A stretch of DNA of 64,000 bases from Lingula anatina (taxonomy: Eukaryota > Animalia > Brachiopoda). The notes under the pieces were generated by a model, which saw only the letters and a program-made list of their open reading frames with translations, was not told where the DNA came from and made no database searches. Made by a program: the position numbers and the translations under genes. The stretch spans positions 16,740,001 through 16,804,000 of the forward strand of contig CM120642.1 in the NCBI GenBank assembly GCA_051362555.1, in the 5' to 3' direction. Below are positions 6,901-55,301 of the stretch, one piece after another. Each line of letters starts with the position of its first letter. The first letter of the stretch is position 1.

Positions 6901-8899
6901 CTGTTTTGTTGTGGCCATTGAATGCATATGCCTCGAATGTATATGCCTGCAAAATGGCGAAGCTGGTTGGGGGTTTCAGCAGTTGAGGTCAGTGACAGAT
7001 CAGATCAGATCAGATCAGATGTGATCTTATGCAAGAGGAAGACATACAACACGGCTCAATATTGCACACGCGGGCTTTCAGAACTAAAAGCTTGATATTA
7101 TTTTCATGTTTACTATAAAAGCTAGAGGGTACTGAAAACTCCAAGATGTTGCTCAATTTATGAGCAGCAGTGAGAATAAATGTTCCAAATCCCAATAACT
7201 ACATATCCATGTACAGGTTAACAAACAAAATCCAATAAAGATTCACTTTTAAGTCATCTAAAAGACTCAACACGTTTTACCTCGTAGAAATATATATCAA
7301 ACGTAGAAAACAGATGTAATCATAAGCATTAAGTACTATCACTTGGAAATTAGACAGATAAATGGATGCATCCAAAAGCCAAATACATTTTGCGGTCTTG
7401 GCATGAACGACTCTGAACTCTTCGTCGCATTTCACCTAATTATTGCTTTGGATAACCGTCATATTATGGTTTCATAACGCATGGAAAATTGTCCTCCAAA
7501 CGTTCGGGTGTTCTTGTTGTTGAAAACTAAATAAAACTATCAACTTTTAAAATGGGATTTGCATAGGTGGAGGGTCCGAATGTAGATTCTTTGCGATTAC
7601 TTTATTCGGGAGACATGTCAAACATCACCAGTAGGAATAAACTTTTGCTTCATGTTTCTTTTTCAGGTATACATGTATCATTGATTATAAAAATAATAAT
7701 GTAGGCCTACAACTTTGACAAGAAATGAATATCATTTTCACCCCCTTAAAGTAAATATACACAAAAAGCAGGAAAATCAGTGTTGTGGGGAGAGCATTCG
7801 ATAATTTTGGATTTAAAGTCGGGTGTTCTCTAAACCTAAGATCTAATATACGGATATATATGGTATATTAGATCTTAGTCTAAACTAAAGGCTTCCCTGG
7901 TCTTAGTAATGTTGTTCTGCTTTGTGTCGAGAATTGTAAACATAAAGCCTATGTCAATCCTTTGGTCAGCGCTTGACGCATGTTCTCCGCAGTGGTGGAG
8001 CTATCTGTTGTCAATTATCTTTGCTATTTCGTAAGGAAATTACCTACACTTTCCAAACGCCTAACTTGCTCAAATGCTTTAGATTAAAATATTTTCGTTA
8101 CCCACAAAATATTACTTAGAAGCAATCCAACTTGTGGAGACTACTGAATCAGAGTTTTATAATTGCTTACAAAACAACACTTCGGTGAAATTGTTAATTT
8201 ATTTTGTATGAATTTAACGAGTAATTGCTGCAATTCAATAGTTCAATTTGGTTGCCTGACAAACCGATTTGGGAGCTGTCAAAGCGTATGCAGTAGAATT
8301 AGTGCCTCTCCAATGTCCAGAAGTGGTGTCATCCTAAGGGTCAATATTACTGATGAGAGTTACTGGACAGAAACTTTTGTCGTCCCTCTTTTATCACATA
8401 GCATTGGCAAGAACCCTTTATTACCCTTTTTCTTCTTGAAGTGGGCAGCTGAGGCAGATCTTCAGAGGCCAAGTTTGTTGCGTGCCTTGCGACTTCGACA
8501 GAACGCTGAGGACTGCTTTGTCGCGAACTGCGTGATATAAAGAAACCTGATAGGCCTCGAAGATAATCTTTCTTCTATTACGTATCATATCAAAAAAGCG
8601 CTATTTTTGCAGTTACAGTAATTGTTGCTTTTGTGAATTCTAAGTCACTTGTCATCGATCCAATTTCGCTATTATAAACACAGGAGGACACTCGCGATAC
8701 AACAAGCTTAGCATTTTTAAGACTGAGCAGGCTCGACAGCATTGCCAATTAAAGGGCGCCAACCAACGCCATTGCTTGATGAACACAAACAAGAATCTGA
8801 TTCGGTGAGATCTGAATATAAAAGTAAGCTTTTCAGGGAATATGTATATGTTGCCGAGTGAATCTGAGAGTGTTTACGGTAGATATACCTGGGCGCAAG

Positions 8900-10219
8900 A
8901 TGTCGAATCAAACTATGGCAGAGGTTGACTTCATCAACAGCACGGAGGATTTTGATTTGGAACAGGCTTCTACGGAGACACGGTCTTGTAAAGGAATTGC
9001 TTGTCTTCCTTTCATTACTGTAGAGGTAATTTTAGCTATCCTTGCAATCTTGGGCAACGTTTTCCTCATTGTCGCTTTTGTAAAATTCAAAGAACTTCGC
9101 CATAGATCAAACTTCGCAATCGTGAGCCTCGCCGTCGCAGATTTGCTCACGGGCGCTATTTGCATACCGTACAACATACTAACGGCTTATCTGATTGAAA
9201 GCCTCCCGTCTCTGCGTCATCTATCATTTGACAAGTACACATGCCTTATGAAAATATGTATCTTCAGCATTATGATGGAGGTCTCTTTCTTGCATCAGGT
9301 GCTAATAGCATTTGAAAGATTTATGAAGATTTGTCGACATGTTCAATACCCGACATGGGTGACAAGCAAAAGACTTATAATTACTATTTGGTGCACGTGG
9401 TTGTACACAATATTCATCAATCTCCCCCCGCTGTTTGGTTGGAACAGTTGGTCTCCCGGCGTAGAATGCAGATCGAGTAAAGTTCAAGCGGATTTCGTGC
9501 GCTACATCATTATTCCCCACCAGCCGATATGTCTTCTGGCAGCGTTCGGGTTCTACATCGCCATTTTCCGCTATGTTCAGCAGCAAAAAAGAAAGATCGC
9601 GAGTTACACAAACTCTGAAAGCTGCCATCAAACCAAGGAGCGTGATCACATTGGGCTTGGACGAGAAGTGGACCGCCCAGACTTTTCGCTGCCTTCAACC
9701 TCGAAAACGTCTGGGACTCCTCTGACTGATATTGCAGCGTGTTCTTCTAAAACTCCGCCGATAACACGGGTGGAGCCTTTATTCAGAGCTGAGCCCAAAA
9801 GTCCCGCGATGTTAGATGCTCCAACAAAGGGAAAAGGAAAAGGAAAACGGTCAGCTCCGACTACTGTTGTCTTTTTAAAAGAAAATCCACGGCCACGAGA
9901 AGATCGTCAAAATTCTCCTCCCGCCGCTCATCAGCATCGCGCCAAGCCTGCAAAAGCCGCCAAAAATGTAGAAGTGAAGGTAGCAAAGATGACGTCACTC
10001 ATCCTTGCCAGTTTTACGTTACTCTTCATACCATCTGTGACACTATTTTTGTGCGAGAAGTACTTTAGAAATAATAGATACACCTTTAATATTCTTTTCA
10101 ACATTACTATTGAATTTATCTGCCTCGGGTCTGTCATTAATCCCTTTATTTACGGAATGTTGAATAGGAATTTCAGGGACGCATGCTTTAAATTATTAAG
10201 ATTGGATCGCTTCGGTTAA
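8900..10219 (+). CDS. Intronless rhodopsin-family (class A) GPCR, adenosine-receptor-like orphan, 439 aa
   Basis: Seven hydrophobic segments with TM1 GN, TM2 SLAVADL, TM3 C...IAFERF, TM4 W and PLFGWN, TM5 Y..IF, a long ICL3, TM7 NPFIY and helix 8 NFR. N-terminal N-glycosylation sequons NQT and NST. First ATG is at 8900; the track ORF starts at a GTG. Confidence 0.93.
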   Translation: MSNQTMAEVDFINSTEDFDLEQASTETRSCKGIACLPFITVEVILAILAILGNVFLIVAFVKFKELRHRSNFAIVSLAVADLLTGAICIPYNILTAYLIESLPSLRHLSFDKYTCLMKICIFSIMMEVSFLHQVLIAFERFMKICRHVQYPTWVTSKRLIITIWCTWLYTIFINLPPLFGWNSWSPGVECRSSKVQADFVRYIIIPHQPICLLAAFGFYIAIFRYVQQQKRKIASYTNSESCHQTKERDHIGLGREVDRPDFSLPSTSKTSGTPLTDIAACSSKTPPITRVEPLFRAEPKSPAMLDAPTKGKGKGKRSAPTTVVFLKENPRPREDRQNSPPAAHQHRAKPAKAAKNVEVKVAKMTSLILASFTLLFIPSVTLFLCEKYFRNNRYTFNILFNITIEFICLGSVINPFIYGMLNRNFRDACFKLLRLDRFG

Positions 10220-23700: not shown

Positions 23701-26700
23701 GTTCTGATAATTAAGAAGTCATTTTCCTTCATCCTGTGTTCATATATGGGGGCCCTGAACATGTTGTTTTCAAATGCCTGCAAACACTGGCCTGGATTCA
23801 GGGAGCCGAGGAAGGGAGACGTGTGCGCGTACGCAAGCTCGCCGTACTTGAACTGTGGAGGGTTGTTATCTTTGCCAGGTTTCTGAGGATTCAAATTAAA
23901 GATTCATTAGTTAATTAAAAGTGCTCTTTAAAATTTGATACATCCCTTAAACAAGGCAGCAAAGCTGTCAAATGTACAGACAAAAAGCAGGAAATAACTA
24001 TGCACAAAATAGGCTAATGTCAATTCTGATGCAAAAGTACATTATGTTAAACTGCAAATTTAACATCAAATTTTAATTATGCTCAACAGGTAATACCAAT
24101 GTAAGTAAAATGTGTAACAAGCATAAGGCTTCAGGCCCATGGGAGTTCAAGTTCACACTTTGAACATGTATAACTTCCAGAAAAAGAAGCCAATTAGACT
24201 GCTTTTCCAACTCAGGCTGCATGCCGATTTCGAACTTGACTTGCGTTTTAGTAAGATCAATTACTCCTGTGAGTTTCATGACAACAAGCCTATCGGTTTT
24301 TCTTGAAATGTGTTTACAGTGTTGCATATATGCTGAAAAGTGAAAAAAAAAAGCATAACTTCTACAATAAAGGCCCGATCATGCTGATTTTTGAACTTGA
24401 CCTGTGTTTTATGAATATTCATCAGCTCTGTAAATATAAAGCCCAAAAGTAAAACTGCCTTCCACTTATCGTGCTTACAATGAAAGTGCACGGCGACGGC
24501 GATGACGGCGACGACAGACACAGGTGATGTCAATATGTACAGACACATCTATATATATTTACTGTACTGTTTAAGAACAGTAATTGACATGGTTTTTCTT
24601 AAATGGTCATCATGGGAACAGTGCCCAAAATAGGTTTTTTTTCAAATTTTGATGCAATATTACATAATGTTTAACAGCATAATGACCATCAATTTTTAAT
24701 AATAAAATATTAGTATCATGGATGTTCAGAAAATGTGACTAGCAAAGGTCTTCAGGCCCATGGAACTTCAAAGTCACAACTTGAAAATGCCAAAATGTAA
24801 ACAAGACAGCACTGTTCTGAAATGTTTTTTTTTCCATTTTTAACAATTTTTAACATAAAACAAAAATAACAGTTTACTGCCATTTTTATATGATCAACTA
24901 AGAAAATTGATGAGATGGGAAAAATATCAACAGAGCAGTGTTAAATGTCCAATTTCTTCCATTCTGAGATTCTGAACATAGTGAATGATTGAATCTGACA
25001 AACTGCAATGATATGAGTTTTTTTCTATTTTTGAAACTTTATTACACAATACATGATAACAAATTTACCATCTTTTTTACAAAATCAACTAACAATGTTG
25101 TAAAGATGCAGGAAATGTCAAACAAACACTTTTATGTATCTTATTAGTTTAATAATGAGACTGTTAACATGCCTAAGAATTGAATCTGAGGAAATGTGAA
25201 AAATATGCTGAAAAGTGAAAAAACAGCATAACTTCTACAATAATGGCCCGATTTTCGAACTTGACCTGCGTTTTATGAATATTCATCAGCTCTGTAAATA
25301 TAAAGCCAAAAAGTAAAACTGCCCTCCACTTATCGTGTTTACAAGGAAAGTGCACGGCGCCGGCATCGGCATCGCCATCGCCATCGCCATCGCCATCGGC
25401 GACGACAGACACAGGTGATGGCAATATGTACAGACACATCTGTGTCTGTACATAAAAAGTTTAATTAAATTTTCCGTTGTGATTATCATTTACTGTAAGT
25501 TGTTTAATTTGAGAAGGACATGTAAATTGATAATATACATGCAGCTTCACATGATCATGCAAATTTAAATTTAGGATTAAGCCATTTACAACAAACACAC
25601 ACTTTTTTACAGTCACCTTAATATGATGTTTTAGTGAAAAAGGTCTTAACAGTTGGGTAAACACTTAAAAATATTACAAAAAAGTACCCTTTTGTAGTAA
25701 TTCTTTATCTTGGTTGCCATGCCAACTTGCATGAGGATAGGCGGGAATTCCTCCGAGTACTCCGCCAAAATCAGTTCTCCATCCATCCCTGTGAGATCTT
25801 GAGGAGTTCTCATGAAAAACATCTCGCCTCCTCCAGAGGCCAGTCGCTCTTGTTCTCTCATCTGAATGTAACATTGATAAATTGTAAGTCGAATATTGTC
25901 ATCACATTAACTGTACCCTCTTCAAAAAATACTTAAATCATTTTTACCTTTACTTAACCTTTGTTAGCATGCTGAACTAATGCCTGATACATACAATACA
26001 AATCGTCATAGGCTCTATTCCCATAGATTTTAGATCGATCTATCCCCGCGGGGAGTCTCACTAGATTACTTTCAGATAATCCGACTTAAATGTCCGTCCC
26101 GCCTACTACAAGCTTTAATGGGGTTATTAACTTTCATGTCCGCCCGGCTGACAGCTATTTAGCGTGAACCCCCAGGGAGTTAGGTTGATCTAAAGTAGGT
26201 CGATCTAATCTATGGAAATGGGGTGATAGACATCCACATGACACAAAGATGGAAGGTTAATTTTGAACTTTTTTGTAACTTTTTGTATCAGGCTAATGAT
26301 ATTGTAGTCACGATTCTAACAGTACTAGCAGATTAATATCATACTTTTTAATTAAAAAAAAAAGATAAAAACAGAGCAATAATAGGGTGAGTATTTATTT
26401 TGTTATACTTTTAAAAACCATCAACCAGAACTCACCTTTGCCTTCCTTCTTATAGTTTTCAGCAGAGGCAGTACAGCCTGTGGTCCGTGCTGAGACATGG
26501 GTCCATGGGAATATTTCTTGAGGGGAGGACGATGAAAATTCCGCAGTTTCATGGTGCCCATGTGTGTTGGGAAAAATGGCTGCCGGAGTTCACATGCTGG
26601 AGTGGAATGCTAAAAAAAAAAAAAACAAGTGATTTTTTAAAGTTGAGCTCCAGTTTTTTTTCCTGTTCACTGAAAATGAAAAAATTAATGTATATCCAAA

Positions 26701-29700
26701 ATGCAAGTGCAAATTGTTAAAAGAGGGACCCTGTGGAAGGCTGAAAGAGAATTATGAAATGTTATCTTTTTTGGTAATTTACCATGTTGAGAGAAATGAA
26801 AAAGTTTTTCAAGTATAAAACTGTCCATGTTTATCAAAAGAGTGCTTGTCTTTCATAACACTACAGAATAAAAACAACACCAACATTAGAAGAAAAATTA
26901 TAAATTCACAGAAGCAACAATTCTTTTTTCCTTTAATATAGCAAAAAACCTCCAAAACAAGTAACCATAGATAACAAATCAACACTGCTGACCTACTTAG
27001 TACCGTAACATAAATTGCAGTCAAATTAATGATAAGAACAGCATGACCTACATTCCTTGGCCAGTGATAAATAACTTATCTCCACAAAACTGCATTACTG
27101 ATAACAACAAGATGACATTTTGGAGTCAAGTAGGTTGAAGTTTATGACAATATAGAATTGGAAATTTTACAATCATGAAAATTAACAAAGAATACTTTTA
27201 AAGCAAATTGTAAACTAATTTTGTCTACCAATTCGGAGTCACTTTTTGCATTGTTTGGTGGCTAAATCTCTCATTTATGTGTGCTTGAATTGAGAGGAGT
27301 CTCTGAGGCTAGTTTGCTCTCAAAAATTTCTTGTTTTCTTAAAAATACAACAGAAACATATAGTTGTCAGTTGAAAATGTCATTTTATTGACATTTGTAC
27401 TTTGATTAATACACAAAGTACAAATTATAATACAAATAATTAAAAATTATCATATGAATGATAAGCATGTATGGTAAATCATTTACAAGTTTAAGACTGG
27501 GTTCCCACAGATTTAGATCGATCCATCTGGATCGGCCTTACTCCCTGGGGGTTCATGCTTAATTGCTGTCAGGCTAGCATGCACAAAGTTAATTACCCCC
27601 TTACAGCTTTTAGTAGGCGGGACAGACATTTGAGCCGGTTAAGCTGACAGCAATCTAGTGAGACTCCCTAGGGGAATAGATCAATCTAAATATCTGTGGG
27701 AATAGTCTCTAAGATATAATTTTAAGTTTCTGCATTGACATAAAATATTATCAGTTCATATCTTAAATACCCATATGTCACATGACAACCTTACATCAGG
27801 TGACAAAGGCACAGGTCTTAATCGCCCCACCAGCAAGGAATTTCTTTATCCATTTCAAGGTGAGTTAAAGACAGCAACTTGTTAAAAATTTTAACACCGG
27901 ATATTAGCTAGTGTGTACTCAAATCATTTCTATACAGTAATCACATTTATATATTGATCCAACTTACTACATCCTATACTTGCTCGTTTCACTTCTGGAT
28001 ACATCCTTTACTTCCTTGTTTCACTTCTGAATACTTCTTTATCTATTCATTATATTCTTCATACCAAAAACAACATTTTCTAGTGTACTAAATTAAAGAC
28101 AATGACTCATGTTCCATCATTTTAAATTCACTTAATTATGCCTTTACCAATGACAAATCATAACAAATTTGCTTAAAAGAAATTAAAGAAAAGGATTTCA
28201 GGACAACCTTAATGCAGTATGCCATGTCTCTCCTAAAGAACTAGTATGACTTTTCTAAAGACAGGAAAAAATGTTGTTAAAGCAAAATTTCCCGCCATCT
28301 TGTGGTGGTTTACGAAAGCCAGCAACACCTTTACCAATGACTCCTTATTTTACAGAGATATTCAATTTTTCCAGGACTAAGACAAAATGGCGACTGCTGC
28401 CACTCCACGAAATGAGATAGAAAACACAATGCGTATGGGGCTACTGATACACCGGTCAAAGGATGTGCTTCAGGATCTCCTCAGTACACAGTTACAAACA
28501 ACTTATCCAGGGTTGTTTGATCCGTCAAATGGTGGCAAGTTGTTTGATATTCTAACTGACCAAAAGGCAAATCAAACTTTGCAACAGTTGAAAAAAATGA
28601 AAGTTTTAAATGCAAGCCAAATGAAGCTTCTATACCCTTCTGGGAAACCCTCCACAACTGTGACATTGCAGGACTTAGATGTGACTCTTACAGTAGTCTT
28701 GTTAAGAAATATCACAACACTTAACCCAAAGGGCAGTTGGGAGAATCCACCGATAACTGACACGTCCATGGAGGCCCAGATTGGCAGAGTGAAGAAATAC
28801 CGCAACAAATTTTCCCATGGGGGCGCCAGTCTCACAGATGCTGCATTTCAGACCCAGTTTACAGAATTGAAAGCTTTGTTGTTATCACTTTCCACAATAT
28901 ACACCAGTGATGACTATGACAAGTTGCTTACTGATCCACTGCATGCAGCAGGTATAAAGTATTTCACAGATAACAAGTGTGCTATGAAGAATAGTGAGAC
29001 AAACTGCTCTCTGATGTTAAGAGGGCCTGTGCTCTATTATATCAATTGACCACCAGTGTATTAAAAAAGACAGATTTTTGTTTTAAGTCTTGAGTGAATT
29101 TCGAAGAAATGCACACAACGAGAGGCACTATTCTTTCTTATTTGTAGTACACTTGTATTGGGATTGTGCTGTGCTGATTGTTCCCCAAGGTATAAACTTA
29201 AAAGAAGGATAACTTTAAGTTTTAAATTAGAAATAACTACAAAATTCACTTCCCCCAACTTCATTTTAAAACATCAAATTTACCTTTCAGGCCTCTACAT
29301 TATAATTACAGGCAAATAATATATATAATATTATAATTTTAATATAATCTTTTTTATGCATGAAAGTTAAGTTTTTTTCTTGCATGTTTACTTTTCCATT
29401 TCAGAATCACCTTGTGAGCTCATCTCTACTAACCTTCCAAGTAGAACTCTAGATCTGAAGGGACGAGTGGACCTGGTGCAGAAAATATTACAGCATGTTG
29501 AAAATGACACAAAACTCATTCTCCTGACTGGCATGGGGGGCATAGGTAAAACAAGCATTGCTATTGAGGTTGGACATCATAGAAAAGATGTCTTGTTTAT
29601 TGATATGAGAAAAGTTGTAAACCTTGATTCTGTTAAATTATCACTTGTGCAACACTATCACCCAACTCAGTTTTTGAAAGATATTTACAGTGATTACCAG

Positions 29701-32700
29701 AACAAATTCATACAAACTATGTCTAATTTAGCAACAGACACTCTCCTTATCCTTGATAATAATGACAGTGTTTTGAATTCACACAAGCAAGAGTTTCTGC
29801 AGTTACTGGAGGATGTCATGAATTCATCAAAACATATCACTCTTTTATGCACCAGTCGTGAATCCTTCAGTCTTCTGTCACAAAACACAGTTACTATAGA
29901 CATCCCTCCTCTTGATAAAACATCTTCACGTGAAGTCCTTTGGGGGGGAAATACAATCAGTCCCACAGATAGTGAGACAGAAGCTTTAGATGAAATATCA
30001 GAGAGATGTGGCCACAATCCCCTTGCATTAAAATTAGCAGCTACCCAGATCAAGCTCAAAACAGTGCAAAAAGTGTTAGAAAAAATAAAACGCATAAAGG
30101 TCCTCCCCTCTCTTCAGTTACCTAACATTCCAGCATCCCAAGGTATGCTTACCTGCTTAAAGATGTCTTACGAAACACTGAATGATACCGAGAAAAGGGT
30201 GTTTAGGGGACTGCATATATTTCCAGTTGCATTCAATTCAAAAGAGGTCTCAAAGATTTTGGAGATGGATGAAGATGAATGTGAATCTGTCCTTGACAGT
30301 CTTAGCATTAAGTCACTCTTGAGTTTAGTCCAAAATTCCTATGATCTGCATCCTTTGGTGAAGGAGTATGCAGAGTTTCTTGCACAAACTGACAGCAATG
30401 AAATCTCTCACACACGTAAGAAATACTGTGATTATTACACAAGTCGAATGTACCAGGGATACTTTGTGCCTAATATTAGAGGTTCACTTTTTGAAAATAT
30501 GTCAAAACTTGTGCCCCATTTACGCATGACTACCACCTTGCTTAAAATGGAACTCTGTACTCCTGACATACAACAGAAAGAAAGTATTCTCGAAACTTTG
30601 CATCAGATTGCAAATACATTCCAATTTCTTTTTCTGAATCAAGAAGCTCTCTCGGTTTTACAGTCAATTGAGGCAGAAATGGACTCATATTCTGAAAGTC
30701 AACCAATCAAAAAAGCAAAAGTGCACAACCATATTGGTTGTGTACTGAGAAACATGGGTAAGTACAAAGAGGCACTTGACAATCACAAAAAATGCCTAAA
30801 AGGTCTAGAAGGGCTGCTAGGTCTCAAACACCCTGCTACTGCTTCCTCATACAACGAAATTGGTATAGTACTAAAAGAGATGGGTAAGTACAAGGAGGCA
30901 CTTGACAATCATAAAAAATGCCTGGAAGTGCAAGAAGAGATCCTTGGTCCCAAAAACAAGAATACTGCTACCTCATACAACAATATTGCTTGTATACTAT
31001 TAAACATGGGTCAGTACAAGGAGGCACTTGACTATCATAAAAAATGTCTACAAGTTATGGAAGAGCTCCGAGGTCTCAAACACCCTGATACTGCTACCTC
31101 ATACAACAATATTGGTTGTGTACTACAAGACATGGGTAAGTACAAAGAGGCATTTGAATATCATAAAAAATGTCTGGAAGTAAGGGAAGAGCTCCTAGGT
31201 CTCAAACACCCTGATACTGCTTGCTCACACAACAATATTGGTGGAGCACTAGAAAGCATGGGTAAGTACAAAGAGGCACTTGACTTTCAAAAAAAATGTC
31301 TAGAAGTAAGGGAAAAGATCCTAGGTTTCAAACACCCTGATACTGCTTGCTCATACAGCAGTATTGGTGGTGTACTAGGAAAAATGGATAAGTACAAAGA
31401 GGCACTTGACTATCATAAAAAATGTCTGGAAGTAAGAGAAGATCTCCTAGGTCCCCAACACCCTGATACCGCTAGCTCATACAACGATATTGGTGGAGTA
31501 CTAGATGCCATGGGTCAGTACAAAAAGGGACTTGACTATTATAAAAAATGTTTGAAAGTAAGGGAAAAGCTCCTAGGTCTCAAACACCCTGATACTGCTA
31601 CCTCATACAACAATATAGGTTGTGTACTACGAAAGATGGGTAAGTACAAAGAGGCACTTGAATATAACAAAAAATGTCTGGAGATAAGTGAAGATCTCCT
31701 TGGTCCCCAACACCCTGATACTGCTATTTCATACAACAATATTGGTGGAGTACTACGAGACATGGGTCAGTACACAGAGGCACTTGACTATTTGAAAAAA
31801 AGCAAAGAAGTGATGGAAGATGTGCTAGGCCCCAAACACCCTAGTACTGCCGATGTATATGGCACTATTGGTGATATACTACAAGCCATGGGTGACTACG
31901 AAAGAGCACTTCCATATTTAAAAAGATGCCACAAACTGAAAAAGGAGCTGCTAGGTCCCAAACACCCTGTTACCGCTAGCTTATACAACAATATTGCTGG
32001 AGTACTACAAGCCATGGGTAAGTACAAAGAGGCACTTGACTATTTGAAAAAAGCAAAGAAGTGATGGAAGATGTGCTAGGCCCCAAACACCCTAGTACTG
32101 CCGAAGTATATGGCAATATTGGTGATTTACTACAAGCCATGGGTGACTACAAAAGAGCACTTCCATATTTAAAAAGATGCCACAAACTGAATAAAAAAAT
32201 ACTTGGTCCCAAACACCCTGATGTAGCTGTAATATGCATTTCAATTTCTACTGTACTTGTGAACATGGGTCAGTTCAAAGAAGCACAAGAATATTTAAAA
32301 AAATATCAGTGAAATTAGTGAGGAGAGCCTACAATCCAAACATCATAATAAGGCTACCTGATACAACAATATAAGGAAAGTGCTGAAATAAATTGATGAA
32401 TAAAAAAAACACTTGTATATATAAATGGAATGAAATGAGAGAATAAGTGTTAGACTGCAAACACCCCGTTATACTGTGTCATAATAATAATGTTGGTTGT
32501 GTACTGCTAGCCTTGAATGCTTAAAAAATGGACATACATTCTGTAATGTAACTTTTCAATATACATGAAAATGTAATTTAAAGTGTTACTAAAAACATCG
32601 GGGAAATTTATTAATTCGTGTTATTTAAATTTACTAAGCAATTATTCTACAAGGGGGTTAAACTCTCAAGACAGAATATGTTGAAAATTCTGGCATTTTT

Positions 32701-33772
32701 TGTCTCTTCAACACACAGTACAATTAAACTATGTAACTGCACATCTTGACTTTCTTCATCCCAAATGTGTCCATGAAATAAAGCACAGCTAGGTGCTGAG
32801 GTTACTTATACCCCGATTTCAGTGAACTCCGAAAGGCTCTTCACTAGTTCTACCTCTTGACAGTCTTCATCTATTAATCCATATTTATCTTCTACAAGAA
32901 TATTTCCATAGACCTAACTTATTCCAGAAAAAAAGGATATATATAGTCCTAACTTCTTCAAAAAATATCTCTATAGTGCTTCATTCACTATGTTTATATA
33001 TTGTCTTATCCTCTTTTGAAACTTATCTGTAGTCTTTTAAGTCTGTTAAAACTTCTCCAAAAATTTTTACATAATCCTACTCCAAAAAATCTCTGCAGTC
33101 CTCAATTCTCCAACAATATTTACCAGTATACTGTGGTCACTTCTCCAAGATCAACTAGATAGAGTCATTTATTTTCTTTGTTCAAGCACAGCCATGCTAA
33201 CAACATAATTTGGGTGGGTGCATGGCTAACTCACTTTTCACTCCAAAGGATTCATTAATCATTTTGCGTGCGTAAATATCCTGAGATAAAAGAACATGGA
33301 ACTGTGTGAATTTGGTGCCAAAATATAAGATTATTGTCTTTATAATATTTTAAATATTTTATTTTATTTCTGCATAAATCCATCATAAGGAAGAGTGCAT
33401 ATGCATGTGCTTCTGTATGGGGATGCAGGATAAAATCAATAATTATAGTTATGCTAGTTCAAATTTTCTAGTTATATAATTCTGCAACTGGTCCAGTCAT
33501 AAATGTGTACACTTTATGCCCCTACATGGGGATGTGAGATTGCAGATTAAAACTGTCAACAGGATATTGATCCGAGCCCACACTGGATTTCTACTGGTGA
33601 GAACCAGAGTGGGAACATAAACACCATAGACTGAAAACGCTATGCATTACCAAGAGGTTACTGTATCAATGAGATAATTCTGGCAGTTCATAAACTGATT
33701 TAAATAACGTGTGAAATGCTAGTGTAACAATGGGTTTCATTTTTATATTATACAGGCTAAAGCTAAATTTTT

Positions 33773-33803
<31 letters not shown>

Positions 33804-36800
33804 GACAAACCTTTTGCCAGGAAAAGTTCCCCTCTGGATGAAATTTTACCTAGTTTCATGGTAAATGGGCCACTTTTTCAGAAAAAGACCCCCTCCCTTA
33901 TCAAACTACTGGCCACGGGCCTCATCTATATTGCCTATATGTCTTTTTTTTTCACAACTGAAGAGTTGAAATGTATTTGTTTTTGTTTGTATATCTGATG
34001 GTAAACATTATTGTTAGAACTTTATGTTGGAGAGTGCTAGATGTGAGTTTGTATCTGCACATGTATACATTTACACATTTATTTAGTTAAATGATAAATA
34101 TCAGTTGGGTGATCAAATGTCTATATTACTGGTACATTCAAATCTACAGGACATACTTTCAGTGTTCCTTATTATATATTTAGCCTTGCTGAAATTGAAG
34201 AAGCTAGTGGTATTCATAATATTTATCTACTTAAAATAATACTGAGATGTTTGTGAATTTATTCATATCTGCTGTGTAAGAGAACTTAACCTGATTAATA
34301 AGTAATAATAAATAAAGTGAAACAACACTGGTGTGCATCAGTACACAAAGGTTGTCCATTAAATTTGGAATGCTCCACATACAGTGTATGGTAATCAAAT
34401 GCAGATTACAAATATTGAGTTTATCTATTTGGGGATAGTTTTTGCCATTGATTTTATTTTAAAAATAATGATGAGTATTTTTTCATTTTTTTTAAAAATG
34501 TATGTATATAAATTCATATACATATATTTTATTTACTCAATATATGTACTGTCATTATTTCATATTTAGAAGTTAGAAATTACTAAACATACTACCAATA
34601 GTTATTATTTTATTTTTAGAAATTTAGTATTAGTTATGAACTTATAAAGATATGGACACTGAACAACCACCAGTCTTTAACATTTCATTTATATTAAACT
34701 TAAAAGTGAAAGAAATTGGGTTCATATCAAATTAAAAGAATAGTTATTTTCAGTCAAGAAAATTTACTTGAACCTCATTATTACCAGTCCCAAAGGCTTA
34801 CTATCAGTCTGGGACTGAAGGACTGACAGTTTTACCATGCCATGAACATCTTACTCTTAATCTGGGCATTACCTTTGTACAGCATGCATTCCTTCTACAT
34901 ACAAGATTTTTAATGTTAAACTGATGTAATGAAAATGCAAATGGCTCAGATTCAGTTTTAATAGGGGTGGGGGTGGGGATTTACATTGTATCATAATATC
35001 ATAATGTGCAATAAATGTAGATTTGAAAAGAATACCAACTTTTTTTTCTTGATTCAAAAGATAAAAATTTTGCTTCAAACCAAGCTGATGTGAAGATACT
35101 ATTTTTATATTTCTAGTTGGTATTATCACTGCTGATATACAATGCAATTTATAATCTTTTTTAATCCCCGTTTCCAGTGTCACAGACTGCCACCTAAATT
35201 CAGTATCAAGATGAATATTTTCTTTTAAAAAAACATGGGAAAAATATCACAGATACTCATATCACTCCCAGTATCTTATAACAAAGAGTAATCTCTGTGA
35301 GTTCAAAGCCATATAGCTAGTATATAGTAGTAAGAAATGTGCCCTGGTGCTGTTCCTGTTCCTAGCGAAGCCAAACAGAAGCAGGTGATTGGAATATGTA
35401 GAGACACTACTGTGTCTATACATAAATATGCAAACATGACAAGGTATAGATTAATAAGTTAAGTCTACATTAAGTTAACCGGCAGTTGAAATGCATCGTC
35501 AGAGTAACTGGGTTCAGTTCCAAGAAGTCAATATTATATCTACAAACTATAGTAAAAATAATAACACTGGCAAAAGAGGAACTCTATCTTTATCTGAATC
35601 AAATCACAAGTCAACATTATAATTCTCAACACACACAAACTGGGGCTGTTTCACTTAAGAACTTATGACTGAAAATGTCTAAAGTTAAAACCCAAAATTT
35701 TCATCTAATCCGAACATAAATCAGTAGTGATCCATTAAGTGCAAAGTTGCTCCCATTTTATAACAGAAAAGACATGGCTAAATAAAATGTAGCAGACTAA
35801 CACTTACTTTATTTACAGAGACAACTATGAATTTATCTTGAATAAAAACAGACAAAATTTTAGGGAAGTAATTATAATCATTGTATTATTGTTTGGAAAT
35901 TTACCATAGTAAGTTTTCACTCAACATTATTATTTTCAGTAAACACTAGCTAACTGTGGCCACAGAAGAACATTAAATTATTTGGACACTCACCTGAATT
36001 AAGTTGCCTCCAACATTGGTTCTCAATGCATTATCCATAGTAAGCTTGGGGTTGTAATGCTCATCGTTGGAGATATTAAAGGGATCTTTCTGCTGAATAG
36101 AATCCTCCTCCTCAAATTAAAGAAATACTTATTAATAAACAAAAAGAAACAAGATTAATTATTTAGAAGTAAAATTGCACTAATCATGTAAAATATTAAA
36201 TAAATGTTTTTAAACTGAATTAGAATCAGGATAAGTATGTATCAACTGAATATGTTTAACTGAAAAGTATAATCAGCAGCTCTGGCTTTAAATAACACAA
36301 TTCCTATTCTTTTAACAACATATATAATCCTTGCTTAATACAAACATCTTCATCTTCCTCCTCAGTTTCTTTGATAAGTCCTGCCTTTCCAAGTAGAATC
36401 TTGGACTTCTTTACTTCCTGAAAATTGTGATTATTTTCCATAAAAGGATCATGAACATCAGATAACTTGCATGAAAAAAAAAATTGACCTTACACAGAAA
36501 TACAATTTCTCAAATTTTTGTGTAAATAAGCCCCTGTGTTTAAACTTTCTGACCAAAAACATGGTCTATCTCAGTTATGGATAAACCAGTAGTAGTCCAC
36601 TTGAATACAGCAATGTTCTGAAAGAGTATCCAAGATGTTCTTGTTATAAAACAATACAGACAAACTCCCAACATGACAACTAGTGCAAATTAATTAAGGT
36701 GATAAAAATATCTCCAAGGCAATAATACTATAATACTGTAAAACTACCTTCTCCTTTTTGCCGGATGTGGTGGACTTCTCCTCCCCAGGGTCTCTGTCCT

Positions 36801-39800
36801 CTGGGATTTCAAGGATGATATTTTCATCATTGGGGTCCAGTGTTAGCACCGATGGTTGAGGAATATGGTCCATGGACTGGAAAAGTCAAAAAGGAAAGAA
36901 AGAAATTAAGAACAAGACAGCACATGCTGTCAAATGGACAGACATAAGTGTGTCACAACTGTCTGAATAACAGCTAAAGTAGACAGGGATCAATAGCCAT
37001 ACCACGAAAGAATAAATCACAGCAAAATATCTTTAAGGTAGATCGGTCGTTACGTAATTTGACGATTTGCGCAATTTCAGCGCATCGTCAATCGTCTCTA
37101 ACGACACTTCAGTCTGTTTTATCAATTTCAGTATAAAGCAATTATCTATAAGATAAACACACATTATCAACTTGTATGTAACTCTGTATGATCGATACAG
37201 ATTTTCGACAACGTTTGTCGACTATGATTCCATACGACAACTGTAGCACGTTCATAGACTTGCCCTTCAAGAAATCTTCGGAATAGCTCCTTTTCCAATT
37301 TGAATTGGCACTAGAAAATGTATGACAGCTAAAGCTCACAAATTATGCACGTAGGTGCTATACCATGTAAAGAATAATTGTTGTAAATTCCGGGCTAAGC
37401 GGCTGCGTACATTTTGAGGTAGAACGCCTTGAATGTGCTGCATACCGTAGCTTAGATTTCGACGAAAACCGGAAGTGCGTCGTAACGCCACTCATTTGGA
37501 CTTAGAGAAATCTGGACTGAGAAATATTTCGTAGCTTATACAAATGTTCAGAAAATAGCCATACAGCTTGAAGAAAATTCACTAATCAAAATTGAAACTG
37601 CGTTATATTATACAGAAAAATTGTGCACTTCTGACCTTCACTTGTGTAAAGAAAGTGTACTGAACGCACCGCAAGCAAGCACGTGAATGCCGCATTTGAT
37701 ACTTTGTATCAGACGCTTCTTTTTACTTGACAACACAGTGTTTACGATGTCACGTTCATGTCCTATTCATTAATAAATAACAACGGCAATAAACTATTTT
37801 CATAGGTATGAGTATTTCCCTTATTATTCTCTTCAACTAGAGGATCAGAGAGGCGATACCGCCTCCGAATATTGTACCACCAGCTGGAGCAAGCGCATTT
37901 GTATAGACCCCCACATACACAAAATAAGGGACACAGCCACCAGTCTTTTGCTTGACAAGCTGTAAAAATGCAATCAACAAGAATTTTCAAAATATGCAAA
38001 AAATATATATATAACTTAAAATGGTACAATCAAAGTTAAGTTCATCAAAAGGTAGGTCAAAGGTCAATTTCACAGTAAGATTGCCAGTATATGACTTCCT
38101 ATTCAAGTTCAATAGTAACAATGGACCTATCTCTGCCAGGTTAGGAGTTAAAAGAGAAAGAAATTAGCAGAGTTCAGTTCATGGTGAAAAGTAGGTCAAA
38201 GGTCAATTTTAAGGTCACATTTAGATTGCTAGTATATGACTTCCTATTCAACTTCAATAGTAACTTTGGACCTATCTCTGCCAGTTTGGGAGATAAAAGG
38301 GAAGCAAAATTTGCAAAGTTCAGTTCATGGTGAAAAGTAGGTCAAAGGACAATTTCAAGGTCATGTTAAGATTGCCAGTATATGACTTCCTATCAACGTT
38401 CAATAGTAACTATGGACCTATCTCTGCCAGATTTGGAGATAAAAGGGCAGCAAAATTTGCAAAGTTCAGTTCATGGTGAAAAGTAGGTCAAAGGTCAATT
38501 TCAAGGTCACATTTGGATTGCCAGTATATGACTTCCTATTCAAGTTCAATAGTAACTATGGACCTATCTCTGCCAGTTTTGGAGATAAAAGGGAAACAAA
38601 ATTTGCAAAGGTTAGTTCATGGTGAAAAGTAGGTCAAAGGTCAATTTCAAGGTCACATTTAGATTGCCAGTATATGACTTCCCATTCAACTTCAATAGTA
38701 ACTATGGACCTATCTCTGCCAGTTTTGGAGATAAAAGGGACGCAAAATTTACAAAGTTCAGTTCATGGTGAAAAGTAGGTCAAAGGTCAATTTTAAGGTC
38801 ACATGTAGATTGCCAGTATATGACTTCCTATTCAAGTTCAATAGTAGCTATGGACCTATCTCTGCCAGTTTTGGAGATAAAAGGGAAACAAAATTTGCAA
38901 AGTTCAGTTCATGGTGAAAAGTAGGTCAAAGGTCAATTTTAAGGTCACATTTAGATTGCCAGTATATGACTTTCTATTCAAGTTCAATAGTAACTATGGA
39001 CCTATCTCTGCCAGTTTTGGAGATAAAAGGGACGCAAAATTTACAAAGTTCAGTTCATGGTGAAAAGTAGGTCAAAGGTCAATTTTAAGGTCACATTTAG
39101 ATTGCCAGTATATGACTTCCTTTTCAACTTCAATAGTAACTATGGACCTATCTCTGCCAGTTTAGGAGATATAAGGGACTAAATGGTATAATTTTGGAGT
39201 TACCATAGTGTGCCATAAATTTCCTACAGAAAAAAATTAATTAAGATAAAGAAAAGGTCATTTTGGTCAAAATTCTTGAAATGGGAGGTGCTTTGAAGTT
39301 CCAGATGTTCAAATTTGATGAAATAATGTCATTTTTGACCACAAGTTGTCTGCTTTGCCAAGCCCGCACATTTTGCTTTCACCACCAGTATATGACTTTT
39401 TGATAAAGCGTAACTCGAAAACCGTATGGAATACAAAAAAACGGAGACCACCTCCAGTGTTGGGCTTTACATGCTCTACAAAATGCAAAAAAGAATGGGT
39501 GTCTAGCATTAACGGTTCCCGAATTAGAGACAATTTTCAGTTTTGATATCTTATGGCCGCTACTCCCGTGAAAATGCACCGATTGACCCCAAATTCACGG
39601 AGATGAAAGATGACCCGAAGGGCAACACTTTCCATTAATATTATTAGTTAAGTCTGTGTGGTGTCTGAATAAGAGCGCAAAAAAATTTTTTTTTGGCAAA
39701 AATTTTGTTTTTTTGAAAATTTTGGCCCGTTTGACCTTGAAATAAAGGTCAAAGGTCAAATCCAAGGGCATATTTGAAATCTACACATATGACTTTTGGA

Positions 39801-42800
39801 AAGCTGTCTGTAGAAATTTTTCCCATAATTCCTTCCGTAGGGGAGATAATTAGCATTTAATTTTGCCATTTTTGGACAAGGGTGCATTGCAATGAGTGCC
39901 ACACCTAGACCCCAATACCGACAAAGCCCAAATTTTACGTGGAACGAGTTGAGATTATAGGTGACCTAAATCCAAGAGATGGGTATGGAGGCCCTTACCG
40001 TCTAGGAGGAGAAGCGGTAACGGTGACTTGGCGGCGGAGCCGGCGGAGCCGCAGGAGCCGGCAGAGCCGGCGGAACATACGGGTCGGGACTAAAACCATG
40101 AGTACCGCCAGCGCCTACGCTGGTGGTACAATAATTTTGTTGGAAAGTTAATGGCCTAGGCCTACACCTCATCTTTTATATAAAACATGCTTTTTGAGGC
40201 ATAATCATGTCACATACAATACACATACATGCATATTTTGTTTACTTGTTGCAAGAAAAACCAGTATAAATTGTGCTTACCTCAGCATCCCATATGACGT
40301 CTTTTTCCCAGTTGCCATAGATGAGTTCTTCATTTTCAATGGGAAAGATGGAGTACCAAATCTTGCTACCATTCTCACCATCAGCATCTTGAAAACAGCA
40401 TCAAAACACAATGAAAATGATCAAACACATGCAAAATACTTTTATACCGTTAGCTTACGACCAACCAGTCTACAAAACTGACCCTTGCATTCTTTCTGAA
40501 TATCGGCGACTAAAGTAATTAATTGAAATTCTAAAACACATCATTTTTTCTAAATTTTTCTTTTCTCAGGAATTTTCATTCGTAGCTTTTCAAAACATTT
40601 TGTTGAAAACATATCAGTTCATGCTGTCTTAATTAATTACAAAATTATTGTATCTCAAAATATGCATTGTAATATCTTGTTCCTTGAATTGTGAGGAGGG
40701 CAAAAACTCATAATAACCTTCCATGTCCATGAAGCTCTTGGAAACATTCAAAGAAGTCCCCAACTTGTAGCTCCCACCTGGTAGGTTTTGTGGTGTCTTA
40801 CCTGGAAGCATGAAGAATAAAATATATCAAGTGATCCTTGATTCATTTTTCCCATTTTATCACATTCTTTTAATTGTTTTACTTGATTTGTAGTTATTAT
40901 TTTGTAGTTATAATTTTTCATTTTACTTCTTGTGTAATTCAAAAATTATTCAACTATTTATTATTTTGTGCATTCATTCACTCACTCATTTACCTATATT
41001 CAAAATTTTACTATTATCTTATTTTTTATCAATTATATAATCTATTCATAAACTCTTTAAACATTCATTCATTTACCTACATTCAAAATTCTATGCCATA
41101 GTAATATCACCATCACTCAGAGACCATTCCCAGACCCTATCCTACTAAATGTGGATCGATCGATCTCCCAGGGGATTTTCCCTAAATTGCAATCAACTTA
41201 AGCAGCTTAGAGGTCTGTCATGCCTACTAAAGCTGTTAGGGGGTAATTAATTATCGTTTAGCAGTTTCAGTAGGCATGTCAGACACCTAAGCCACTTAAG
41301 CTGGGAGCAATTTAGTGAAAAACCCCTCGGAGATGGAATGATCCTGTTAAATCAATCTTTATATTGGAACCCAGTCTTACTCTGGGCCAAAAACTGTGCC
41401 ACAGTCCTGTGAGCCGAGCTGGGGATCCATCCAGCCAAGGCAGACTTGTGCTTGTTGGACTGGACCACTTTCTGCCTGGCCTCTTCTCCATTCCAGATGA
41501 TATCCTCCTCCCAGGGGAGCTGGGTTACCATGTGGAACGCCTCGTCGGGATAAGCTGGACCACTGATCTCTTCTTTGGCTTCGCTGTCTTCAGTTTTCTA
41601 ATAATTATGATAATAGTAATAATATATTATTATTCGAGTTGCAGAAAAGAAGATATGTGTAGATGGTTGATGCATCTAATCTTGGTTCTTCATCTTCAGT
41701 TTTCTGAGAAACAAAAGGAGAAGATCACATTTTGCTATCTCCTATGGGGTTTGGGATATATGTAAACAACTCATCATGATGGCTCAGCATTCTTATTTTT
41801 CTACCAGTATTCAGTTAAATTAAAAACAAAGGACAGACTGAGCAAATTTTAAGTTACATCTTTCCTATCACAGTATCTACTGATGGATTTTTTTAATCAG
41901 TACTTAATTTTCCTGTTGTATTTTCCATAAAGTGTCCCAAGGGGAGAAAATACAAGTATCAAATAACAACAAAATTTCATATATACAACTAGACACTGCT
42001 GCAAGAAAGCAGACTTCCACAAAGAAAAATGGAATTACTTAAATTCATTTAAAAATGGCTGGTTCAGTTAAAATTGGAATAACTTCTTTGCCTCCTAAAC
42101 AACTGTCTATCCTAAAAATTTCACCTAACTTTTGAGAACTTTTTCAGACATCCTGACCACTAATAAACAGACAAACCAAGGCCATTGAAAACATAATTTT
42201 TTTAACTGATACAATTTACAAACATCTTTATTTGTTGTCATTACCTCTTTCAGTTTCATTCCATAGTCAAATCCCTCCCCAGTTTCATCCAATCCAATCA
42301 TGTCATACCAGTATGCTGCGGGACCGTAACGCCAGGCTGCCACACATGGTTTCTGATCTCCCTGGTGTCCACCATCTTGATCAACAGTTGACTTCTTTGG
42401 TTCTAAATGCTTCAGCATCATCAACTTAAAACACACACAAAAAAATTTCAGCCTCTTTCGATCAAATACACTTCACACATTCATCCTTCTATGAAGGTTT
42501 TTCATAATAAATCATCCTAACAAATATCTGCGAAAACGTTTTGTTTTTTCATCAATTTACTCAAAAATATTTTGATTTTTCATCAGTTTAGTCAATTTTT
42601 TTTTCAGAAAACTATTAAATTTCTGTAAGAGGTACAAGCATTGCAAGATCTCAGTGATCTTTGGACATTAAATCTTCATATGTATGTTAATATTTTTTTC
42701 ACCTATGAAGCATCAAAGGGTCTTTTTTTACCATTTTATAAAAGTATGAAGAGACAATTAAAATTCACATTTTAAATATTTTCCTTAAGTAATCCCCACC

Positions 42801-53681: not shown

Positions 53682-55301
<1,620 letters not shown>

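Follow-up and report, generated by a model that had tools for sequence, protein, structure and literature searches.

A two-exon HEPN–NB-ARC–TPR gene lies antisense within a TAF1 intron of the brachiopod Lingula anatina

The stretch of DNA analysed here (the window) comprises 64,000 nucleotides of the Lingula anatina genome, positions 16,740,001 to 16,804,000 of contig CM120642.1 in assembly GCA_051362555.1. On its forward strand lies a two-exon gene whose product carries, in this order, a HEPN_DZIP3 head, an NB-ARC/AP-ATPase module of the STAND (signal transduction ATPases with numerous domains) class and a long array of 42-aa tetratricopeptide repeats (TPRs). The gene sits antisense in an intron of TAF1 (Table 1). 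We propose that such a protein would probably, on balance, act as a one-chain immune receptor, in which a ligand bound by the TPRs drives the STAND module to oligomerize and the paired HEPN heads to cut RNA.

A two-exon gene nested in TAF1

The initial annotation had read two seemingly separate open reading frames (ORFs) as one gene joined across a phase-1 intron, and the join proved sound. Spliced translation from the ATG at 28387 yields 1074 aa with no internal stop, and both splice sites are canonical GT-AG sites in phase 1, with a donor CAG/GTATAA at 28951/28952 and a pyrimidine-rich acceptor TTTCAG/A at 29404/29405. Among 12 L. anatina RefSeq relatives, 11 bear the head and span the junction in the alignment, ten without gaps and one (P0012) with two additional residues; at the junction itself P0001–P0003 differ from the window protein by a single residue. 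Polyadenylation signals (AATAAA) lie 3′ of the end of the frame at 32190, 32387 and 32399.

RNA reads were mapped to positions 26000–37200 from three runs (X12, stranded; X15; and X18, unstranded), together with one DNA run (X1). The mapping was crowded by high-copy repeats: 24 exon differences were listed, and a further 848 letter, 87 joint and 33 indel rows stand outside that list. In X18 the summed depth was 48 and 68 in two bins of exon 1, zero in the intron bin (28992–29365), 51–66 in three bins of the STAND module and a patchy 6–43 across the TPRs. The initial annotation had looked to RNA reads crossing 28951/29405; exon depth on either side of an empty intron bin agrees with the join, and the joint rows listed hold none for the junction. 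Two other structures were rejected, namely a read-through of exon 1 as far as the stop at 29049 and splicing to alternative acceptors, because the relatives fit the 28951/29405 join and the X18 intron bin is empty. The two-exon gene is real, and its family is expressed and spliced in one RNA run, X18.

The host gene was identified from minus-strand exon candidates listed by script, eight of which were scanned with Pfam. DUF3591 was matched by three and Bromodomain by one, a pair of domains that we take to mark TAF1; the exon immediately upstream of the host intron, taken alone, gave no Pfam match. The exons that flank the host intron join in frame across GT-AG ends, and in the stranded run X12 the bin holding the downstream exon has reads in one direction only (11.9 vs 0.2). 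The gene therefore lies antisense within the TAF1 intron, where the initial annotation had put it. In all likelihood the location itself carries no significance and simply marks where a young copy landed.

A single contig of the DNA run X1 suggests that a TAF1 allele without the surrounding 9-kb block exists. In this contig, which has a depth of 64 compared with 328.6 for the contig of the TAF1 exon, 26625 is joined to 35680 through 13 letters that have no match in the window, and a poly-A run borders the joint. The block itself is also represented in X1, by other contigs that agree with the window at 26632–27002 with no differences and a depth of 11.9. The heptamer TAAAGTT occurs at both 26638 and 35680, a coincidence that random intron pairs produce 0.2% of the time and that was noticed post hoc. 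As one contig in one run, this is a lead only.

Table 1. Coordinates of the gene, its motifs and its host intron in the window
Feature	Position	Strand	Details
TAF1 exon downstream of host intron	26436..26609	-	DUF3591 33.3 bits
Host TAF1 intron, 9384 nt	26610..35993	-	GT..AG ends; flanking exons join in frame
TAF1 exon upstream of host intron	35994..36113	-	5′ edge approximate; open frame, in-frame join to next exon
Candidate presence/absence block, ~9.05 kb	26626..35679	.	one contig of DNA run X1
First ORF	28381..29049	+	222 aa stop to stop; 220 aa from ATG at 28387
Second ORF	29371..32064	+	897 aa stop to stop
Coding exon 1, entire HEPN head	28387..28951	+	188 codons + 1 base
HEPN_DZIP3 (PF18738) match, aa 51–187	28537..28947	+	113.7 bits, E 7.7e-33, cut-off 27
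RNKFSH (RxxxxH motif), predicted RNase site, aa 139–144	28801..28818	+	
Intron, phase-1 GT-AG, 453 nt	28952..29404	+	splice-site inspection, alignment of relatives, X18 depth 0
Coding exon 2: STAND module, linker, TPR array, through stop codon	29405..32064	+	
Walker A, GMGGIGKT	29530..29553	+	
Walker B, LLILDN	29743..29760	+	
Sensor-1-like TSRE	29851..29862	+	
GxP motif, CGHNPLAL	30007..30030	+	aligns with CGFLPLAI of AfsR
Winged-helix LHPLV, MHD-like	30346..30360	+	His kept, Pro for Asp; aligns with FHDLV of AfsR
Eleven in-frame 126-nt (42-aa) TPR units	30706..32064	+	10 whole, 11th cut short; units 56–89% alike in DNA
Run of six A, site of one-base frame shift	32047..32052	+	
Two more TPR units, in a frame other than that of exon 2	32091..32312	+	TPR_12 90.2 bits on 32040–32309

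Domains of the predicted protein

The HEPN match covers nearly all of its profile (positions 3–138 of 144 in the Pfam scan), and the DZIP3-type assignment and the RxxxxH motif both stand as the initial annotation gave them. Although their heads are only 49–94% identical, 10 of the 11 RefSeq relatives with a HEPN domain retain this motif, the exception being P0009 with RNKHAN. A model of the head built from the single sequence is all-helical, but weak, with a predicted local distance difference test (pLDDT) score of 45.

The initial annotation had also called the switch NB-ARC rather than NACHT and had listed a full set of STAND motifs. Pfam bears out the former, with NB-ARC at 29.3 bits above its cut-off of 23.5 and NACHT at 15.8 bits below its cut-off of 26.7. 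The motifs, LHPLV included, are present once each and in the expected order; TSRE is presumably the sensor-1-like element. Walker A is whole in the window copy and 11 of the 12 relatives, and the Walker B Asp, the sensor-1 Arg and the winged-helix His are conserved in all 13 rows of the alignment (the window copy and 12 relatives). When a five-sequence profile of the module was compared with solved structures, AfsR (E 1e-13), Roq1 (2e-10), an RPW8-type NOD-like receptor (NLR) and Apaf-1 (4e-7) came foremost. A Foldseek search with a weak model of the module (pLDDT 57) placed resistosomes, CED-4 and Apaf-1 at the top, and only backs the profile result. By its sequence, then, the switch is of the NB-ARC/AP-ATPase type, and its kinship to Apaf-1, Roq1 and NRC would imply nucleotide-gated oligomerization. 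As a separate observation, the winged-helix latch reads HPL throughout the Lingula family where AfsR has HDL, and the Asp of the MHD motif is Pro in 13 of 13 rows.

The C-terminal array matches TPR_12 at 523 bits and TPR_NPHP3 as well. Of the 13 TPRs ending at 32312 that had been annotated, the array itself stands, while the count and the end do not, as the frame closes at 32064 and units 12 and 13 lie past a one-base shift in a run of six A. Two repeats upstream, a nearly identical unit carries seven A at the corresponding place, and the shift may be either a real truncation or an assembly error. Decayed remnants of TPR units were also seen downstream of the last open units, at 32320–32372 and 32486–32515, from which it follows that the array was formerly longer. 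Within the 42-aa units of the window the variable positions are 5, 9, 12, 15, 16, 27 and 34; positions 5, 12, 15 and 16 are variable again in three of four groups of family members, whose units were extracted with a search pattern that did not capture all of them.

An expanded Lingula family and its relatives

The 12 RefSeq relatives are 44–85% identical to the window protein over exon 2 residues 1–440, and the other 19 of the 31 matches in the same search score 56 bits or less. They lie on different contigs and range from 724 to 1285 aa in length. With a further L. anatina member from the profile search described below (P0147), the family numbers at least 13. The window copy and the L. anatina members form one clade, with a support of 99 in a FastTree tree of 136 rows (for which 4 of 139 stored proteins were dropped by length) and 100 in a quick IQ-TREE tree of 51 chosen rows, and the terminal branch of the window copy is short (0.02–0.03). 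Conservation declines from head to tail: identity to P0001 and P0002 is 94% in the head, 91% in the nucleotide-binding part, 66–69% in the linker and 64–70% in the first TPRs. At some positions the window copy departs from residues that P0001–P0003 have in common. No description of this family was found in our literature search, outside which lies Gerdol et al. 2018; that study is said to concern the Lingula immune system and may already describe it.

Could the protein instead be a scaffold or regulator with no immune role, or an antisense regulator of TAF1? RefSeq names two of the relatives ‘nephrocystin-3-like’ and ‘TPR 28-like’, the TPR_NPHP3 match would agree with this, and the nested antisense position invites the second version. 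The RefSeq names, however, derive from TPR matches alone, and the lineage-specific expansion, fast-changing tails and swapped heads suit genes of conflict. As for TAF1, the relatives lie on different contigs, and according to the X1 contig some alleles of TAF1 may lack the block. We regard this explanation as highly unlikely.

Three further L. anatina gene models carry heads of the same kind on other bodies. P0032 (HEPN-Roc-COR) is 95.4% identical to the P0004 head over residues 1–194, and the match stops at the exon junction; P0033, with HEPN and a weak DED match, is 84.5% identical to the P0007 head; P0034, with a partial head, LRRs (leucine-rich repeats) plus a weak Roc-COR match, is 87% identical to P0001 and P0002 over 62 residues. 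All three are RefSeq gene models, that of the ROCO gene being XP_013395173.1, and possibly mis-joined. We offer as a speculative, rather doubtful extension that a single HEPN exon bounded by a phase-1 intron is exchanged among STAND-TPR, ROCO GTPase and DED chassis, that whole receptor genes are gained and lost as 9-kb insertions, in this case within an intron of the essential gene TAF1, and that, if the head is an oligomer-gated RNase, the result is an animal one-protein counterpart of bacterial Avs and RNase L segregating as a presence/absence allele.

A profile search of 1.84 billion representatives gave, among the best 150 matches, 145 new relatives. Domains were scanned in 30 of these, namely 29 chosen for room before the STAND domain plus P0147. 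HEPN_DZIP3 was found in seven, five of which also have NB-ARC and TPR_12, and DUF4559, which we take to be a CXorf38-type HEPN, in eight. An Rx4-6H motif is present in 15 of the 16 non-Lingula HEPN-type heads examined, the exception being one of seven HEPN_DZIP3 heads. Among ten relatives that were looked up, the organisms given are Lingula, two cnidarians (Dendronephthya and Oculina) and a bacterium, and the two HEPN-bearing relatives looked up fall outside that set; an atlas of clusters holds cnidarian NB-ARC clusters, one of them with DED and TPR_12. An early view of the protein as confined to Lingula with bacterial nearest kin was dropped once the profile search had given cnidarian proteins and many HEPN-bearing relatives.

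HEPN_DZIP3 and DUF4559 heads are mixed on the STAND tree, which argues that heads were exchanged more than once. The quick 51-row tree leaves the branching order open between the Lingula clade, the second group with HEPN heads and three bacterial STANDs with WD40 repeats, and the deep branches are unresolved in the FastTree tree also. Six proteins (P0177, P0180, P0223, P0232, P0287 and P0039) were seen to carry a DUF4559 head with RNxWAH on a similar NB-ARC-TPR body. The P0039 head had been considered as kin of the DZIP3-type head and was rejected, being of the DUF4559 type with no similarity.

Comparison with known receptors

The initial annotation had raised the possibility that the architecture was undescribed. 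This did not survive: coral tables already list ‘DZIP3-like HEPN, NB-ARC, TPR’ (PMC10236652, additional files 16–17; Acropora digitifera OG0000193), where file 17 has HEPN/NB-ARC/TPR in 8 of the first 30 of its 323 HEPN rows, and five of the 30 relatives scanned here have it too. What is new is the extension of a coral-type architecture to a brachiopod member; the design itself is already known. The coral OG0000193-type proteins share the three domains with the Lingula gene in the same order. Unlike them, the Lingula gene belongs to a brachiopod and is nested in TAF1, and in the 51-row tree the STAND domains of Lingula group in a separate clade. Its array is also longer and more regular, with TPR_12 at 523 bits compared with 56–80 in the five scanned relatives.

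The protein had further been placed closer to fungal NLRs and bacterial Avs than to vertebrate NACHT-LRR receptors. The unlikeness to NACHT-LRR receptors holds, as NACHT is below its cut-off and no LRR is among the Pfam families listed, so that the protein does not qualify as a canonical animal NLR. The closest likeness, however, is to the coral NB-ARC-TPR proteins, because the coral tables and the five scanned relatives share its three domains.

Among animals, HEPN_DZIP3-NACHT receptors have been described in pearl oyster (PMC9646362), anthozoans (PMC8260672) and amphioxus (PMC13012124), and PMC8662601 reports HEPN-NACHT receptors in nine invertebrate taxa. They resemble the Lingula protein in an N-terminal DZIP3-type HEPN with Rx4H, a STAND switch, repeats and expansion, and those of the oyster show presence/absence between haplotypes, as in the lead obtained here. 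They differ in that the Lingula switch is NB-ARC/AP-ATPase and is followed by no LRR. Placozoans, too, have NB-ARC proteins, with repeats of the WD40 or TPR type (PMC6321704), and HEPN fusions are known from brachiopods and oysters (PMC8195603).

Fungal NB-ARC-TPR NLRs (PMC4986451) share with the Lingula gene the NB-ARC domain and TPR_10/12-type 42-aa units that are alike within a gene save at a few variable positions, variation which in the fungal proteins falls on the concave face. Their effectors, in contrast, are sesB-like, PNP_UDP or HET, and positive selection is established for the fungal genes only. Bacterial Avs (PMC13581612) and HEPN-STAND-TPR proteins follow the same effector-STAND-TPR logic in a single chain; bacterial fusions of HEPN to STAND and TPR are described in PMC3710099, whose section 16 proposes an analogy with RNase L. 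The bacterial STAND relatives are only 21–29% identical to the Lingula domain, and PADLOC at E 0.01 gave no Avs match (none at all for the head and one weak TRIP13 match for the STAND part). In the KEN/HEPN RNases RNase L and Ire1, ligand-driven pairing of HEPN domains offers a model for activation, although these enzymes have kinase-like switches, unlike the NB-ARC of Lingula.

A proposed mechanism and its alternatives

Gene structure, domains, intact motifs, expansion of the family and variable TPR positions are all observed; the steps by which they would produce a receptor we infer from better-known systems, namely plant NLRs, Apaf-1, RNase L and Avs. At rest the protein would be an ADP-bound monomer. 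A foreign or damage-derived ligand, whose nature is a guess, would bind the variable face of the TPRs, after which nucleotide exchange would allow the STAND module to form a ring. The HEPN heads would then pair into composite sites, as they do in other HEPN families, and cleavage of RNA, its target likewise a guess, would probably lead to translation arrest or cell death.

Several results weigh against this mechanism or its operation in the window copy. The head model (pLDDT 45) is too weak to decide on the fold, and a fold search with it returned unrelated helical bundles, the best with a Z of 7.0, among which 1wwp, given as a HEPN entry in PMC3710099, ranked seventh (Z 5.8, root-mean-square deviation 4.2, 84 residues aligned), and the head sequence had no match in the PDB. 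For DZIP3-type HEPN domains the literature search yielded no RNase assay, dimer or structure, nor any other experiment that puts one to the test. In nine TPR units the overall proportion of nonsynonymous differences (pN, 0.22) is below that of synonymous differences (pS, 0.26), and pN exceeds the overall pS at 16 of 42 positions; the variable positions therefore do not establish positive selection. The assembled copy has a frameshift in its tail. Finally, X12 and X15 cover the gene at 0–2x, and the few X12 reads on it share the direction of the TAF1 reads and were not taken as expression. In X18, nine of the 24 exon differences listed change a residue, each time to the one found in P0001 or P0002, and certain sites have no read that agrees with the window (88 of 88 differ at 28608, 81 of 81 at 28669). 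The X18 reads are thus evidence for expression of the family, not of the window allele.

Such reads, together with the frameshift at 32047–32052, the repeat remnants and the residues that depart from the P0001–P0003 consensus, could mean that the window copy is a duplicate in decay or cut short, which is either silent or produced lacking the final two repeats, in a family that otherwise keeps the mechanism; at several exon sites the window letter is absent from the listed reads. Set against this are 1074 open codons with every motif intact and the short terminal branch. The lengths of the RefSeq relatives vary in any case, AATAAA signals follow the frame, and loss of one base in a run of A is a common assembly error. 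On this evidence we think decay unlikely.

A second alternative concerns the head, which might bind RNA or recruit partners without cutting, the protein then signalling like a Death-fold NLR adaptor. Passages of PMC8662601 leave open whether HEPN acts as sensor or RNase, cnidarian look-alikes have DED in that place, P0009 has RNKHAN and one of seven non-Lingula HEPN_DZIP3 relatives has no matching motif. The motif is nevertheless found in 11 of 12 Lingula heads, in 15 of 16 non-Lingula HEPN-type heads and in 194 of 202 heads in pearl oyster (PMC9646362), and RNase roles for such heads have been predicted by authors working on oyster (PMC9646362) and coral. A non-cutting head consequently seems to us distinctly unlikely, and cleavage by paired heads remains the reading that we prefer.

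Many marine invertebrates have STAND receptors with a HEPN head, and in the literature searched their RNase activity is only predicted. With its two exons, its complete set of motifs and about a dozen naturally occurring variants, the Lingula gene offers a convenient test of animal receptors that would sense and cut in one chain. Exon swapping and the possible empty allele, if true, would reveal how such repertoires diversify. Known pathways are unchanged by the gene on its own.

Other features of the window

An uninterrupted ORF of 463 aa (8828–10219, +), which lies past the candidate 3′ exons of TAF1 and on the strand opposite to theirs, encodes a G protein-coupled receptor of the rhodopsin family (7tm_1, 117.7 bits), and an ORF of 182 aa (53914–54462, +) has a NUDIX match of 24.8 bits. 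Copies of a high-copy element of ~200 nt, resembling a miniature inverted-repeat transposable element and internally symmetrical by inversion, lie at 26015–26229, 27500–27714 and 41154–41250, and are covered very deeply in both DNA and RNA runs. The neighbouring TAF1 intron holds interspersed direct repeats (24113–25441) that are 94–100% alike and spaced at ~870 nt.

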